A model generated the notes under the pieces. It searched no databases, was not told the origin of the DNA, and was given only the letters and a program-made list of their open reading frames with translations. A stretch of DNA of 64,000 nt from an uncultured Gammaproteobacteria bacterium (GTDB lineage: Bacteria > Patescibacteriota > Microgenomatia > UBA8517): assembly GCA_964610395.1 (NCBI GenBank), contig CAZSXP010000001.1, forward strand, positions 63,342 through 127,341, read 5' to 3'. Below, piece after piece: positions 1,438 through 33,743 of the stretch; the first letter of the stretch is position 1; every line of letters begins with the position of its first letter. A program made the position numbers and the translations under genes.

Positions 1438-1551
1438 CTAAAATAGCCCTGCAAAAAAATCAGGGCCATAAGCCAAAAACCACCATAATATAAAAGCTAA
1501 CACAAACATTAACAACATAAAACTTACCCAAGACAATATTTCCTTCTTCAT
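1438..1551 (-). CDS. Possible 37-aa hydrophobic micro-protein (MKKEILSWVSFMLLMFVLAFILWWFLAYGPDFFAGLF)
   Basis: ATG preceded by GGAG-type SD; single TM-like segment; not in ORF track because shorter than 60 aa. Confidence 0.3.
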   Translation of the reverse strand: MKKEILSWVSFMLLMFVLAFILWWFLAYGPDFFAGLF

Positions 1552-1643: not shown

Positions 1644-2339
1644 TTATATTATTGTTTTTGTCAAATCTATTACCTTTTCTAAATTTCCACCAAGAATTAC
1701 TTCTAAATTTCCCCATGACTTTTTAAGTCTGTGATCAGTTATTCTGTCTTGTGGGTAATTATAAGTACGTATTTTTTCGCTTCTTTTACCACTTCCAATA
1801 ACAGATCGATATCCTGCAACGGTTTTTAATTTTTCCTCTTCTTGTTTTTCAAATAGTTTTGTTCGAAGTAGTGCAAGAGCTATTATTCTATTTTGTTCCT
1901 GAAACCTCTCTTCTCTTGCTTGAACCACAATTCCTGATGGTACATGCCGTAGTCTGACAGCTGTAGACACTTTGTTTACATTTTGTCCACCATGTCCACC
2001 AGCAGTTGTAAACTGCCACTCAAGGTCCTGTGGGTTAATATGAACTTCGTTCTCGGCAACTTCTGGGAGTACTACTACTGTTGCAGTAGATGTGTGGATT
2101 CGGCCTCTTTTTTCTGTTGCGGGTACCCGCTGAACTCTATGTACTCCTGATTCGTTTTTTAGTTCGTCAAAAACATCTTGGCCTGTTATTTTTAGAGTTA
2201 AATCATCAATTTGTGATTGTTTCCAGTTTTTCTTTGTAGCAAATCTAGAATACATACGAAGAAGGTCTTGTCCCCAGAGTTTGGCTTCGTCGCCTCCTGT
2301 AGCTCCACGAATTTCTATATATGCAATTTGGTTAAGCAT
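1644..2339 (-). CDS. Class-I peptide chain release factor, RF1-type (PAT motif, GGQ motif), lacking N-terminal domain 1
   Basis: 'GATGGDEAKLWGQDLLRMYSRF', 'SGVHRVQRVPATEKRGRIHTSTATVVVLP', 'GGHGGQNVNKVSTAVRLRHVPSGIVV'; only 231 aa; start overlaps the L31 stop. Confidence 0.75.
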   Translation of the reverse strand: MLNQIAYIEIRGATGGDEAKLWGQDLLRMYSRFATKKNWKQSQIDDLTLKITGQDVFDELKNESGVHRVQRVPATEKRGRIHTSTATVVVLPEVAENEVHINPQDLEWQFTTAGGHGGQNVNKVSTAVRLRHVPSGIVVQAREERFQEQNRIIALALLRTKLFEKQEEEKLKTVAGYRSVIGSGKRSEKIRTYNYPQDRITDHRLKKSWGNLEVILGGNLEKVIDLTKTII

Positions 2340-2661
2340 TTCTTAGTGCGGATAAAGTATCTGGTCTATCCATCTCTTCTTTAATTCTTTTTTCTTGTTT
2401 TATTTTTCTTTTTTCAGATTTTGAAATAACCTTTTTTGAAGCGTGTGACAATTTTTGTTTAAAGCTTTCAACTCTTCCTGCAGCATCTAAATATTTCATT
2501 TGACCTGTATAAAACGGATGACAGACAGAACAAACTTCAACGTTAATCTCAGGAGTTGTTGCACCAACTGTGAATGTGTTACCACAAGCACAACTTACTT
2601 TTGCCGTCTTAAACCATTTTGGGTGAAGCGGTATACCGCTGTTATTTATTGTTGCCTTCAT
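2332..2661 (-). CDS. rpmE: 50S ribosomal protein L31 with a ~38-aa Lys-rich C-terminal extension
   Basis: 'CACGNTFTVGATTPEINVEVCSVCHPFYTGQ...GRVESF' matches the L31 CxxC...CxxC fold; ORF runs 109 aa. Confidence 0.8.
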   Translation of the reverse strand: MKATINNSGIPLHPKWFKTAKVSCACGNTFTVGATTPEINVEVCSVCHPFYTGQMKYLDAAGRVESFKQKLSHASKKVISKSEKRKIKQEKRIKEEMDRPDTLSALRNA

Positions 2662-2663
2662 AG

Positions 2664-3551
2664 TTATGTATTATATCTTTTTTTCTTGATCTCGGCAATG
2701 GCTACTCCAATTGCAATTATGACTGCTCCAATTATAAACATGGGTGTGATTTTTTCTCCAAGCCATAAAACAGCGATGGGTAATGAAAAAATTGGATATA
2801 AATAAGAAAATAAACTAGCCTCACCTATCTCAATTGATTTTTGTGCTTTCGTATTTAAGTAAAAGGCGAGTGTTCCAGAAATAATGGCCATGTATAAGAC
2901 ACCAATGTGATATGAAATTGGTGTCGAAATAAGAATTAATAATGAAGAATTAAGAGTTGAAGAAAATAAAACATAAGCACCAAAACAGATAAAGCCTATT
3001 ATGAAAGATATATTGGTCATGGTCATTGGATTAACATCTTTTTTAAGTAAATTTTTAGCTAAAAGAGTTGTAATAACGGTCGAAATTACGTAACCTAAAA
3101 CCAAAAGATTACCAGAAAAATTTAAGGGACCAGTTATTGTTAATGCAGTTCCAAAGATTGCAATTCCCATTCCAATTTTTTCCCTTTTAGTAACATGTTC
3201 ATGCAAGAAGTAAACTCCTACAGTTGAAATAATTAAAGGGCTTGCAAGTGTAATTAATCCAGTTTCTAAAACTGTTGTATTTTCCATACCGAAAAATAAA
3301 AGTCCTAAAGATACCACGGAATTTAAAAAACCATATAAAAGTAAAGTTAAAAATACTCCTATATTTTTAGGAATATGCATACCGTAAGTTGCAAAAATAA
3401 TCACTGCAATTATTGTAGAAATCCCAAATCTATACGTAAGGAATATAGTAGGGGAAAATCCTGCTAATGTGTATTTAATTACAGGCGACGCCACTCCCCA
3501 AATAACACCAACCACAATAAGCATTAAATAGGCGCGAATTCTTGGTGTCAT
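2664..3551 (-). CDS. EamA/DMT-family membrane transporter (10 TM)
   Basis: 295-aa polytopic hydrophobic protein with duplicated 5-TM halves typical of the EamA family. Confidence 0.65.
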   Translation of the reverse strand: MTPRIRAYLMLIVVGVIWGVASPVIKYTLAGFSPTIFLTYRFGISTIIAVIIFATYGMHIPKNIGVFLTLLLYGFLNSVVSLGLLFFGMENTTVLETGLITLASPLIISTVGVYFLHEHVTKREKIGMGIAIFGTALTITGPLNFSGNLLVLGYVISTVITTLLAKNLLKKDVNPMTMTNISFIIGFICFGAYVLFSSTLNSSLLILISTPISYHIGVLYMAIISGTLAFYLNTKAQKSIEIGEASLFSYLYPIFSLPIAVLWLGEKITPMFIIGAVIIAIGVAIAEIKKKRYNT

Positions 3552-4417
3552 ATAAGCTCAATGATACGATCGATTCCAAAAGAAAAACCAACTGCAGGAA
3601 TTTGACGTCCAGCAAACATGCCAATTAAATTATCATATCTTCCGCCACCACCAACTGACAAGTCTTGCGGCATTCCATTTAATTTCATTTCAAAAACGGT
3701 CGAAGTATAATAATCAAGGCCTCTTGCTAAAGTTGGATCAAAAAAGAAATCAACATCTTTTTTTAACTTATAATCGCTTTCTAAAATTTTAAATATTTCC
3801 AATAATCTTGGAGTGGGTGTAGATTTAGCAATAAAGTCTAAAAGACTTTGCGGCATATTTTCTTTGCCAATTTTATACATTTTGTCTATTAATCTTATTT
3901 CATCAATTGAAAGATCTTTAAAATTTTCTCTGTCATTTATAGCAAGGCGTGCCTTGTTGAAGTTCATTGCACGCATACCTTCAATACTTGCTGCAATTAC
4001 TTTTGCGTCGTCGTTTACACTTTCACTTCCAACAATGTCACAATCAAATTGTGTGAATTCTCTCGATCTTCCTTTTTGAGGCTTTTCTCCTCTAAAGACT
4101 TGGCCGATTTGGTATCTTGCAAATGTTGGATTTAATAATCCTAAGTTGTTAGAAACAAATCTTGCCAAGGGAACGGTTAAATCATAACGAAGAGCAAGTT
4201 TTCTTCCACCTCTATCTTCAAAGGTGTAAATTAACTTTTCATCTTCACCATATTTACCAAGTAAAGTTTCTGCAAATTCAATTGTTGGAGTTTCAAGAGG
4301 AGTAAAGTCAAATTTTTCAAGAACAACAGCAATCTTATTAACAAACATCCGGCGTTTTGAAGCCACATCTGGCATCATATCTTGAAAACCTTTAGGTGTT
4401 ACTGGCCCTTTTTGCAT
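3548..4417 (-). CDS. Histidyl-tRNA synthetase-like class II catalytic core (HisZ/HisRS-like), no anticodon-binding domain
   Basis: Motif 2-like 'YQIGQVFRGEKPQKGRSREFTQFDCDIVG', motif 3 'GGGRYDNLIGMFAG...PAVGFSFGIDRI'; ends right after the core at 289 aa. Confidence 0.7.
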   Translation of the reverse strand: MQKGPVTPKGFQDMMPDVASKRRMFVNKIAVVLEKFDFTPLETPTIEFAETLLGKYGEDEKLIYTFEDRGGRKLALRYDLTVPLARFVSNNLGLLNPTFARYQIGQVFRGEKPQKGRSREFTQFDCDIVGSESVNDDAKVIAASIEGMRAMNFNKARLAINDRENFKDLSIDEIRLIDKMYKIGKENMPQSLLDFIAKSTPTPRLLEIFKILESDYKLKKDVDFFFDPTLARGLDYYTSTVFEMKLNGMPQDLSVGGGGRYDNLIGMFAGRQIPAVGFSFGIDRIIELI

Positions 4418-5875: not shown

Positions 5876-7198
5876 ATGGCAGATACAAATCAGGTTAGAG
5901 TACCACCACATTCGGTAGAAGCAGAGGAAAGTGTCCTTGGAGCTCTTTTGTTGGATAAAGATGCAGTAATAGCAGTTGCTGAATTTTTATCTCCAGAGGA
6001 TTTCTATGATGAACGCCACAAAGAAATTTATGAAGCAATATTATCTCTTTATGAAGAAAGAACTCCAGTTGATGTATTAACCGTCGCTACGCGCCTAAAA
6101 AAAACAAAAGCGTTAAAAAGAGTAGGTGGTGCGTCATACCTCACAGATATTGCAAATAAAGTCCCAACAGCAGCCCATGTTGAGCATTATGGGAAAATAG
6201 TTAAAGATCAATCAGTTAAAAGATCTTTAATGAAAGCTGCAACAAGATTAGTTGAATTTTCACTTGACGAAGGAATGTCATCAGCTGATTTATTAGATAA
6301 AGCTGAGTCAGAGGTTTTTTCACTTTCACAAAAGAATGTCAAAAAAGAATTTACTTCAGTTAGGGATACCTTAGCAGAAAGTTTTGACAGGCTTGATGAA
6401 CTTCATAAACAAGGAGAGGGTCTAAGAGGAATTGCCACAGGTTTTATTGATCTTGACAGTGCTACCGCAGGATTACAAAAGAGTAATTTAATAATACTTG
6501 CAGGAAGACCTGGTACAGGTAAATCAGCACTTGCAATGAATATTGCTCAATATGCTTCGGTTAAAAACAAAAAGAATGTTGGATATTTCTCACTTGAGAT
6601 GAGTAAGGAGGAATTAGTTGATAGACTTCTTGTTGATGTTGCTGACATAGACGCATGGAGACTTAAAACTGGAAAACTTGATGAAAATGATTTTACAAAA
6701 CTTAGCAAGGCGATGGGGATCTTGGCAGAAGCTTCGCTTTATATTGATGACACACCTGCACTATCAATTTTAGAAATGAGAACAAAAGCAAGAAGACTTC
6801 AAATTGAACATGGATTAGATTTATTAGTTGTTGATTATTTACAACTAGCAAGAAGTAGAAACCTAGAAAATAGAGTACAAGAAGTGGGAGAAATATCACA
6901 AGGCCTTAAAAATCTTGCTAGAGAACTGAAAGTTCCAGTTTTAGCACTTTCTCAGTTGTCAAGAGGTGTAGAGTCAAGAACTATCAAGAGACCTCAACTT
7001 TCTGACCTTCGTGAATCTGGGAGCATCGAACAGGATAGTGACGTTGTTATGTTTATTTGGCGCGAAGAAGATGATAATGTGGAAAATGTAATGCTTGATA
7101 TTGCAAAACATAGAAATGGACCACTTGCCTCTGTTCCATTATTCTTCAAAGGGGATAGAATTAAATTCTTCTCAAGAGACTCAAAACACAAAAAATAA
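5876..7198 (+). CDS. dnaB: Replicative DNA helicase DnaB
   Basis: Walker A 'GRPGTGKSALAMNIA', 'FSLEMS', 'ALSQLSR', N-terminal 'VPPHSVEAEESVLGALL'. Confidence 0.95.
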   Translation: MADTNQVRVPPHSVEAEESVLGALLLDKDAVIAVAEFLSPEDFYDERHKEIYEAILSLYEERTPVDVLTVATRLKKTKALKRVGGASYLTDIANKVPTAAHVEHYGKIVKDQSVKRSLMKAATRLVEFSLDEGMSSADLLDKAESEVFSLSQKNVKKEFTSVRDTLAESFDRLDELHKQGEGLRGIATGFIDLDSATAGLQKSNLIILAGRPGTGKSALAMNIAQYASVKNKKNVGYFSLEMSKEELVDRLLVDVADIDAWRLKTGKLDENDFTKLSKAMGILAEASLYIDDTPALSILEMRTKARRLQIEHGLDLLVVDYLQLARSRNLENRVQEVGEISQGLKNLARELKVPVLALSQLSRGVESRTIKRPQLSDLRESGSIEQDSDVVMFIWREEDDNVENVMLDIAKHRNGPLASVPLFFKGDRIKFFSRDSKHKK

Positions 7199-7204
7199 TT
7201 TTTG

Positions 7205-7288
7205 TGCCGGAGAGAAGATTCGGACTTCCATGACTTTTTAGGTCACACGATTTTGAGTCGTGCGTGTATACCATTCCACCACTCCGGC
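7205..7288 (-). tRNA. tRNA-Leu (anticodon CAA), type II with long variable arm
   Basis: Manual fold: acceptor GCCGGAG/CTCCGGC, D-stem GTG/CAC, anticodon stem CACGA/TCGTG with loop CTCAAAA, variable arm TGAC...GTCA, T-arm GGAAG-TCCGAAT-CTTCT, discriminator A; CCA not encoded. Confidence 0.75.
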
Positions 7289-32211: not shown

Positions 32212-32388
32212 TTGAAATTAATAAACAAAAATAGAGATTTGAGAGACGCAAAACCAATGATGGAAACCAAAAGTATCAAAATGGAAACATCAGATTGCGA
32301 TACTGCATGTACAAGCGATTGTGCACAAAGTTGTGGATGTGAATCAGATTGTGCAGCAAGCTGTGGTTGCGAAGGGTCAAACGAATAA
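32212..32388 (+). CDS. Cys-rich RiPP precursor peptide (MKLINKNRDLRDAKPMMETKSIKME | TSDCDTACTSDCAQSCGCESDCAASCGCEGSNE)
   Basis: Strong SD AAGGAGGTGA 8 nt before TTG; leader plus core with 8 Cys in repeated SDC/SCGCE motifs; immediately upstream of YcaO. Confidence 0.6.
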   Translation: MKLINKNRDLRDAKPMMETKSIKMETSDCDTACTSDCAQSCGCESDCAASCGCEGSNE

Positions 32389-32396
32389 TACAAAAA

Positions 32397-33743
32397 GTGA
32401 AACTAAATCTATATAGCGAAAGCGAACAAGATATAGATAAGACTTTGTTGTCTTTGTCTTTGCTTGTTAATAAAGACTACGGATTAATTAAGAAAATTAA
32501 ACGTGTACGTCAGTATTATGATGAACCTAAGTTTTGGTATTATTCTGCTGATGTAAACGACTCATATTTAAAGAATGACGGTAGACACTTTCATTCAAAA
32601 TCTTCAGGTGCTTCACTCTATTCGCAAAAGGAAGCCTTATTAAAGTGTTTGTGTGAATTAATGGAGAGATACTGCAATTTCTATTTTAAAAAAGAATCAA
32701 TTGTTACGACTAAATCAATTGATAATATGACTAATAAATTTATTGATCCTAGATCTATGTCAGCTTTTTCCAAGACTCAACTTGAAAAAAATGAATTTAA
32801 AAAATTTAGAATTAACAATAATTCAGTTTTTAGATGGACAAATTGCATTTCACTTTTAGATAATAATGAAGAATATCTAATACCTTCACAATCTATATAT
32901 CTTTCATATCCATATTTAAAAGCTGAACCATCTATTTATTCAGCAATTAGTACTGGTGTAGCAGGTGGAGCAAATCTCTCGGCTGCTATTGTTCGAGGAA
33001 TTTGTGAAGTAATCGAGCGTGATGCATTCATGATTTTTTATCTTAATAAACTTACAGCCTCAAGAATTGATCTTAAGAATATTAATAATCCGGATATTAA
33101 AAATACAATGTCAATTTTAGATAGATATAAATTTGAAGTAGTTGTTCTTGATATTACAACCGATGTTAATGTCCCTACTGTTGCATCGATTATTGTAAAT
33201 CGATCTGGAATCGGTAAAGCTGTATCTGTGGGGTTAAAATGTGACTTTGATATAATCAAAGCAATTACAGGTTCTATTGAAGAAGCACTCCATACTCGGT
33301 CATGGCTTAGATCAAGTTTTGAAGATGAGCCAATTAAAGTTAATCCTCAGGACTTGCAGAAAAGTTCAGATATTAAATTAAGGGGTTTTTTGTGGTACGA
33401 AGCAGAAGCAATTAAAAATATTGATTATTGGATTAAAAATGCAAAGATAAAAGACATTAATTATTCTAGTAAACCGATGAAATCTGGTGAAAAGTTAAAA
33501 AGACTAACTAAAATATTTAGCGATAAAAATTATGAACTATACTATAAAGACATAACCATAAGCGAATTTAAAAAACTTAATTACTATATCGTAAAAGTAA
33601 TTATTCCAAAGATGCAACCAATTTATCTTAATGAAAAATATCCACTATTAGGAAGCGATAGACTGTATAGTGTTCCTGCTAAATTAGGATTTAAAAATAA
33701 ATTAGAGGATGATTTAAATAAATACCCACATCCATTTTTATAG
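32397..33743 (+). CDS. YcaO-domain cyclodehydratase (TOMM 'D' protein)
   Basis: 'HSKSSGASLYSQKEALLKCLCELMERYC' (GxGxT...A..SA..E..ER signature); C-terminal Pro-rich 'KYPHPFL'; start uncertain (GTG 32397; the track ORF begins at TTG 32349 inside the precursor). Confidence 0.8.
   Translation: MKLNLYSESEQDIDKTLLSLSLLVNKDYGLIKKIKRVRQYYDEPKFWYYSADVNDSYLKNDGRHFHSKSSGASLYSQKEALLKCLCELMERYCNFYFKKESIVTTKSIDNMTNKFIDPRSMSAFSKTQLEKNEFKKFRINNNSVFRWTNCISLLDNNEEYLIPSQSIYLSYPYLKAEPSIYSAISTGVAGGANLSAAIVRGICEVIERDAFMIFYLNKLTASRIDLKNINNPDIKNTMSILDRYKFEVVVLDITTDVNVPTVASIIVNRSGIGKAVSVGLKCDFDIIKAITGSIEEALHTRSWLRSSFEDEPIKVNPQDLQKSSDIKLRGFLWYEAEAIKNIDYWIKNAKIKDINYSSKPMKSGEKLKRLTKIFSDKNYELYYKDITISEFKKLNYYIVKVIIPKMQPIYLNEKYPLLGSDRLYSVPAKLGFKNKLEDDLNKYPHPFL

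Follow-up and report, generated by a model that had tools for sequence, protein, structure and literature searches.

Can a class-I release factor lose its entire first domain and still serve as a housekeeping factor, or does a gene of that shape have to be read as a fragment, a fusion partner or an accessory paralogue? This question is raised by a 231-aa release factor (RF) gene that lies directly downstream of the gene for ribosomal protein L31 (rpmE) in a 64,000-nucleotide stretch of contig CAZSXP010000001.1 (assembly GCA_964610395.1), which we refer to as the window, and which derives from an uncultured, Woesebacteria-like bacterium of the candidate phyla radiation (CPR), placed by GTDB in the Microgenomatia (UBA8517). 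Domain 1 of RF1 contacts RF3 and the L11/L7-L12 stalk of the ribosome, and it is present in essentially every RF1 and RF2 that has been described, its dispensability having been known so far from laboratory deletions in Escherichia coli. Our analysis indicates that the window open reading frame (ORF) is most probably the housekeeping prfA gene and that it encodes a class-I RF1 whose domain 1 was lost through a deletion in the gene itself. The coordinates of the features discussed below are collected in Table 1.

Among the NCBIfam models, the window RF matches prfA PRK00591 best (298.8 bits, profile positions 106-337 of 347), and it scores 289.4 bits with TIGR00019, as compared with 189.4 bits for prfB, 63.7 bits for prfH and 50.2 bits for ArfB. 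Both prfA scores lie under the curated equivalog cut-offs (298.8 against 400, and 289.4 against 423.25), in the case of PRK00591 because the first 105 profile positions are absent. The Pfam RF-1 (GGQ) domain PF00472 is present in full (profile positions 2-116 of 116, E = 1.3e-34), and of the Pfam PCRF domain only positions 102-194 of 194, i.e. the last 93, are covered. Alignments to solved structures place query residues 6-225 on E. coli RF1 111-342, residues 5-228 on T. thermophilus RF1 106-340, and residues 6-225 on T. maritima RF1 88-318; the E-values lie between 1e-53 and 1e-65 for the RF1 structures and near 1e-33 for RF2 chains. The decoding elements of the window RF (GATGGDEA, HRVQRVPAT and RIHTSTAT), together with GGQ, are aligned to the RF1 structures. 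Across an alignment with 28 relatives, most of which read PTT and not PAT, the GGQ motif, P73/T75, HRVQRVP and RIHTSTAT are invariant, and core identity between the window RF and ordinary RF1s is 48-50%. On these comparisons the window RF is RF1 type by descent, with RF2, PrfH and ArfB all scoring lower. The first-pass annotation of this DNA, which had described an RF1-type factor that starts near the equivalent of E. coli residue 105, keeps the PAT and GGQ motifs and lacks the N-terminal domain, is borne out in each of these respects, the alignment beginning at about residue 106 and both motifs being legible in the DNA.

Of the other explanations, the one that survives best, improbable as we judge it to be, is that the gene encodes an accessory or rescue paralogue of the PrfH or ArfB kind and that a full-length prfA lies elsewhere in the genome. 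PrfH (RF-H; TIGR03072) is a class-I RF homologue of ~200-230 aa that, like the window RF, has no domain 1 (PMC1586002), and the name given by the NCBI pipeline to the window RF type is only 'peptide chain release factor-like protein'. PrfH, however, is an accessory factor with a divergent decoding region and an RtcB partner, and its likeness to the window RF is confined to the GGQ domain: the prfH score stands against a cut-off of 166.65 bits, with only prfH positions 98-197 (the GGQ part) matching, and in the alignment to the PrfH structure 9mor (1.7e-13) the GGQ domain alone is aligned. ArfB (ICT1; PRK09256), which matches residues 96-132 of the window RF, 37 residues only, has the GGQ domain in common with it but carries a basic C-terminal tail and no domains 2 and 4, whereas the window RF has the PCRF part (domain 2) as well as domain 4. 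Moreover, the window RF has the canonical RF1 PAT and decoding residues, branches inside the RF1 orthologues, and stands at the rpmE-adjacent prfA locus. PrfH genes stand in an operon with an RtcB-family RNA ligase immediately upstream; upstream of the window RF lies rpmE, and there is no RtcB in the Pfam-annotated neighbourhoods. A grouping with PrfH is rejected by the profile comparison across RF1, RF2, PrfH and ArfB that the first-pass annotation had proposed. No second RF paralogue was found within the 64-kb window, and the genome scan, which relied on peptide patterns, found a single RF1 locus in each assembly, the complete genome CP011214.1 among them.

The short form is a conserved, selected gene and no artefact. 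A protein search of NCBI, JGI, ENA and Logan listed at least 120 clusters at 84-100% identity, all of them 230-243 aa long and, where a name is present, labelled 'peptide chain release factor-like protein' and assigned to Woesebacteria, Microgenomates or Patescibacteria. In addition, 80 CPR and other loci from GTDB species representatives, found by the peptide-pattern genome scan, were analysed in six frames. Assessable related loci with a short RF1 numbered 35 (L005-L037, L041 and L044; 63-90% identity within the clade), and in every one of these an in-frame stop stands 0-42 codons upstream of the RF start. In the Woesebacteria, Shapirobacteria and Blackburnbacteria loci the N-terminal extension relative to the window Met1 is 0-6 aa (13 aa in one), and the RF starts in the related loci have a common MENQ/MEPQ..YLEIRGATGGDEAKLWG. 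The same gene order recurs in groundwater metagenome contigs and in a closed genome of 841,695 bp.

How did a gene of this length arise? In nearly all 80 loci the RF1 gene, whatever its length, is immediately preceded by the L31 gene, and the short gene therefore sits at the ancestral prfA locus. The N-terminal extensions of the rpmE-adjacent RF1s fall into classes of ~0, 52-77 and 101-125 aa, and the same three length classes are found among the nearest 50%-identity cluster representatives. The normal extension of 101-125 aa occurs in Uhrbacteria, Magasanikbacteria, Falkowbacteria and non-CPR loci, and the extension of 52-77 aa in Amesbacteria, WWE3, Saccharimonadales and others. When compared with a hidden Markov model (HMM) of domain 1 (111 positions, built from 90 full-length RF1s), which gives 77-108 bits on every full-length CPR RF1, the intermediate RF1s keep positions ~52-100 only (positions 8-51 in two loci). 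In a simple distance tree of the RF core (neighbour-joining), which is indicative only, all the short forms of Woesebacteria, Shapirobacteria and Blackburnbacteria group together as a clade, whose sister group is formed by RF1s with an extension of 60-67 aa. As these sister lineages have half of domain 1, the loss was stepwise, and the short RF1 appears to have become fixed in the common ancestor of Woesebacteria, Shapirobacteria, Blackburnbacteria and relatives, which form a large clade within the Microgenomates. Other short forms, from Yanofskybacteria (L041) and from locus L073, branch elsewhere in the neighbour-joining tree, and their positions suggest independent losses of domain 1. The survey of prfA lengths thus finds the short form kept clade-wide, at a conserved rpmE-prfA locus and grouping with RF1 and not with PrfH or ArfB, which agrees with the lineage-specific minimal RF1 that had been offered as one of two readings of this gene.

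A smaller change, which the first-pass annotation does not mention, is found in domain 2, where 10 aa are missing as an alignment gap against the RF1s of T. maritima and S. mutans. The spacing between the R...GGxE and GxHRVQR motifs is 54 aa in the window RF, a value shared by 33 of 35 short forms, as against 64 aa in all 33 full-length RF1s. The same deletion is found in the sister forms with a 60-67-aa extension and is not found in the independent short forms, and this distribution places it, in the lineage of the window, before the last step in the loss of domain 1.

Domain 1 might also be supplied in trans, by a split-off small helical protein contacting RF3 or the stalk, an explanation to which we assign a marginally smaller chance than to a paralogue. 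The domain-1 HMM, however, has no match at E<=10 in six-frame ORFs of at least 25 aa from the whole 64-kb window, and none in the short-form loci, each searched in all frames over ±10 kb, in line with the earlier remark that no ORF of 60 aa or more nearby encodes a domain-1 equivalent. The sister lineages, for their part, shorten progressively in cis, through half-domains, with no split. An upstream frameshift restoring domain 1, which had been named as an observation that would undo the first reading of the gene, was looked for and not found. Other candidates for a hidden domain 1 were rejected as well. The RF frame upstream of the ATG reads ..ILYPH*EM.., loosely like LLLPKDP, as if a domain-1 relic had been overprinted by the L31 tail, and this idea was dropped because the tail is equally long beside full-length RF1 and the domain-1 HMM is negative. 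A circularly permuted domain 1, considered for short RF1 cluster representatives with long C-termini, gave way to gene-call artefacts. The 50%-identity representatives P0148, P0162, P0198 and P0240 are high-GC artefacts that combine an internal start with out-of-frame read-through, and they call for caution in automated surveys of RF lengths.

The gene upstream deserves separate treatment, as the first-pass annotation had noted a Lys-rich extension on L31 and had considered it together with the short RF. The L31 core occupies residues 12-76 (profile positions 5-70 of 72), which leaves a tail of ~33 aa. The L31 proteins of E. coli and B. subtilis have no such tail, and the extension is in this sense real, but it is a general CPR trait and no oddity linked to the RF. 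Lys-rich tails of 20-54 aa are found in nearly all CPR loci, including many beside full-length RF1; those of Uhrbacteria, Magasanikbacteria and Falkowbacteria, with full-length RF1, are of similar length, and the tail is nearly absent in Yanofskybacteria (L041), which has a short RF1. Because it is also present beside full-length RF1, the tail appears to be a CPR-wide ribosomal-protein extension that is unrelated to the RF truncation. As for its composition, an end motif RPxxLxELR / SLKEML is conserved in Microgenomates, WWE3 and Saccharimonadales (reduced or absent domain 1; L31 of L005-L049), and the tail is plain Lys/Ala-rich in Uhrbacteria, Magasanikbacteria and Falkowbacteria (full-length RF1), a pattern that is confounded with phylogeny.

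The RF ATG (2337-2339) does lie inside the last codons of rpmE (...AATGCTTAA), as had been reported, and fusion or frameshift coupling of the two genes was the second of the original readings. A single L31-RF1 polypeptide, or a programmed frameshift at ATGCTTAA, with the L31 tail serving as linker or standing in for domain 1, would be in keeping with the 8-nt overlap, with the lack of an obvious Shine-Dalgarno motif before the window RF ATG, and with a tail that is unusual when set against model bacteria. We nevertheless hold it to be very improbable. The 8-nt overlap is confined to the window and to metagenome contigs identical with it; as against the -8 nt of the window, the L31 stop and the RF start are -14, 1-5, 9-38 or 78-104 nt apart in 33 related short-RF1 genomes (L005, L007-L037, and L041 from outside the clade), no locus has L31 and RF in one frame, and there is no slippery motif or other conserved signal in common. 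The presence of a similar tail beside full-length RF1, and its near absence from Yanofskybacteria, speak against a role as linker or substitute, and L31 sits on the ribosome at a great distance from the factor-binding stalk, in the bridge between the central protuberance and the 30S head. Shine-Dalgarno-like motifs are rare before the RF starts of relatives. For the two genes as separate units, rpmE and prfA are probably co-transcribed, and in this genome the overlap is compatible with translational coupling by termination-reinitiation. Finally, there is a negligible chance that the gene is a pseudogene, or a normal prfA whose 5' end has been clipped by an error of assembly or gene calling, for although several short representatives proved to be artefacts of the high-GC kind described above, the same architecture is found in independent assemblies from four sources, closed genomes included, identity is 84-100% with invariant catalytic residues, and rpmE fills the DNA directly upstream, leaving no room for the ~315 nt of a domain-1 coding sequence.

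Just downstream of the RF gene is a small hydrophobic ORF of 37 aa (MKKEILSWVSFMLLMFVLAFILWWFLAYGPDFFAGLF, 1438-1551, minus strand), for which two identical metagenome contigs likewise have a gene call. The inverted repeat listed in Table 1 stands between the convergent gene for an S41 peptidase and the transcription unit of the RF and the small ORF, and may be a bidirectional terminator; a terminator scan made no call at this repeat, whose loop exceeds 8 nt.

Table 1. Features of the rpmE-prfA region, in positions of the 64,000-nucleotide window
Feature	Position	Strand	Remarks
prfA orthologue, 231 aa, domains 2-3-4 only	1644..2339	minus	stop TAA; Met1 equivalent to E. coli RF1 residue ~106
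P-A-T tripeptide, residues 73-75, RF1 stop-codon 'anticodon' motif within GVHRVQRVPATEKRGRIHTSTATV	2115..2123	minus	read from DNA
GGQ catalytic motif, residues 117-119	1983..1991	minus	read from DNA
10-aa deletion in domain 2, after WKQSQID	2199..2213	minus	site approximate; structure alignments, motif spacing
rpmE, bL31, 109 aa, directly upstream of prfA	2332..2661	minus	stop TAA; ORF, Pfam/NCBIfam
L31 Lys-rich C-terminal tail, residues 77-109, ending in RPDTLSALRNA	2335..2433	minus	
8-nt overlap ATGCTTAA, RF1 start / L31 stop	2332..2339	minus	not conserved
Candidate operon promoter, sigma-70-like TTGCCG-17-TATAAT, just upstream of the rpmE start	2670..2698	minus	consensus match only
10-bp inverted repeat GGTACAGAGA...TCTCTGTACC, T-rich loop	1381..1418	none	read from sequence

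Relative to canonical RF1 (PrfA; TIGR00019 / PRK00591), domains 2, 3 and 4 of the window RF are alike, including PxT, GGQ, the GxxGGxEA helix tip and RIHTS, and the differences are the absence of domain 1 (~105 aa) and of a 10-aa hairpin in domain 2. With this equipment, the short RF1 would recognise UAA and UAG with the decoding module of domains 2 and 4, which is intact (PAT, RIHTST, Q70 and the GxxGGDEA helix tip), and would hydrolyse peptidyl-tRNA through its intact GGQ domain 3. Binding to the A site, decoding and hydrolysis would be normal, and the factor would afterwards dissociate from the ribosome on its own; this departure is expected to be independent of recycling by RF3 because domain 1 is the part that touches RF3 and the L11/L7-L12 stalk. 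Over evolutionary time, a half-domain-1 step, still visible in sister lineages, came before the full deletion in the ancestor of the Microgenomates clade. The ancestral CPR order rpmE-prfA was kept, and co-transcription with rpmE is probable, as is, in this genome, translational coupling via the ATGCTTAA overlap.

Such a short RF1 fits existing biochemistry and does not overturn it. According to PMC1586002 (citing Mora et al. 2003), E. coli RF1 minus domain 1 carries out peptide release in vitro and works in vivo, and domain 1 is without effect on codon specificity and is required to stimulate nucleotide exchange on RF3. The engineered E. coli RF1 and RF2 minus domain 1 have the same architecture of domains 2-4 as the window RF, keep codon-specific release, and cannot stimulate nucleotide exchange on RF3 (Mora, Zavialov, Ehrenberg & Buckingham 2003, as summarised in PMC1586002). 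They are, however, laboratory deletions in an RF3-bearing E. coli, whereas the window RF is natural, clade-fixed, presumably co-adapted, and known from sequence.

Some results weigh against this interpretation of the window gene, or against domain 1 being dispensable for both class-I factors. Some RF3-less bacteria retain domain 1, so that the disappearance of RF3 would not by itself account for the deletion. An AF2 model of the window RF, made from a shallow alignment, was poor (pLDDT 54.8) and was not used. No RF2 was found in the 64-kb window or at any RF1 locus, and the RF2 of this lineage was not recovered by a scan of metagenomes with the AT-rich DNA pattern for GVHRLVRxSPFD.

An RF2 activity must be encoded elsewhere in this genome, since UGA is used as a stop in 19 of 60 genes: a crude gene call with code 11, which covered 87% of the window, gave TAA 34 times, TGA 19 times and TAG 7 times. 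What the metagenome scan did give is a 242-aa RF2 without domain 1 (L094, 761-1486, minus strand), which matches prfB profile positions 108-352 of 353 at 323.8 bits, under the 370-bit cut-off. At least 120 clusters of relatives of this short RF2 are listed (P0271-P0390), nearly all 239-249 aa in length (range 222-306), which are named Harrisonbacteria, Nomurabacteria or Parcubacteria and annotated as 'PCRF domain-containing' or 'release factor-like'. One short RF2 was modelled with AF2 (pLDDT 79.9), and the model fits ribosome-bound RF2 and RF1 over its whole length (TMq 0.80-0.86). The short RF2 of Parcubacteria resembles the window RF in being the same kind of natural truncation, with a similar shortening of domain 2 and likewise vague NCBI labels. 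It differs in being of RF2 type (SPF motif), in a different CPR class and at a different locus, prfB-ftsE-ftsX, a gene order seen in one 554-kb contig; neither ftsE nor ftsX is found in the window. Short RF2 genes of this kind, of which another stands at 10001-10738 of L234, are widespread in CPR bacteria of the Parcubacteria type. The same metagenome scan returned RF2 of the full-length type from Komeilibacteria, Kuenenbacteria and Kerfeldbacteria. In a separate scan of viral contigs (IMG/VR), 27 contigs (L207-L233) had RF2-type genes with GVHRLVRxSPFD, several of them as ORFs of 118-221 aa, and their products are presumably release factors carried by phages.

In different CPR lineages, both class-I factors have thus been affected by a natural loss of domain 1. 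More tentatively, with a confidence that stops somewhat short of an even balance, we propose that large CPR clades run termination without RF domain 1 and probably without RF3 (RF1 in Woesebacteria, Shapirobacteria and Blackburnbacteria; RF2 in Harrisonbacteria and Nomurabacteria; possibly both in some genomes), a state that would have been reached from full through half to none.

Beyond the rpmE-prfA region, the window holds a gene for a histidyl-tRNA synthetase-like protein of 289 aa (3548-4417, minus strand), which is 289-290 aa long in relatives too. Its score with the hisS model TIGR00442 is 283.1 bits (cut-off 286.75), the best of two matching stretches covering positions 2-183 of 406. 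The protein seems to be without a C-terminal anticodon-binding domain, and may represent either a further core translation protein that has lost a domain or a HisZ-like paralogue. The window DnaB has 440 aa (5876-7198, plus strand), and that of a close relative (L005/L006, 3738-6326), which carries an intein and a LAGLIDADG endonuclease, has 862 aa. Also present are a YcaO-domain protein (32349-33743, plus strand), a secretion ATPase of the PilB/T2SSE type (28055-29809, plus strand) and a membrane H+-pyrophosphatase (21757-23769, minus strand) flanked by gyrA and gyrB. The sole RNA gene found in the window is tRNA-Leu(CAA), at 7204-7288.

The natural minimal form of RF1 seems not to have been described previously. 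Our literature searches gave no description of a CPR RF1 or RF2 without domain 1, and a published account of such factors names PrfH alone as lacking it, in contrast with ArfB. The databases, meanwhile, hold thousands of domain-1-less RF sequences under vague names. As short RF1 and RF2 score under the curated prfA and prfB cut-offs, marker-gene pipelines may score these factors as missing. If the short RF1 is the sole RF1 of its hosts, domain 1 has been repeatedly removed by nature in the CPR, and domains 2-4 suffice in vivo. The CPR would then offer a graded natural series, with ~105, 50-75 and 0 residues of domain 1, for the roles of this domain in RF3 recycling, L11 docking and fidelity. 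If termination without domain 1 in large CPR clades holds true, it would mean that the small ribosomes of these bacteria recruit and recycle class-I factors at the L11/L7-L12 stalk in a changed way.

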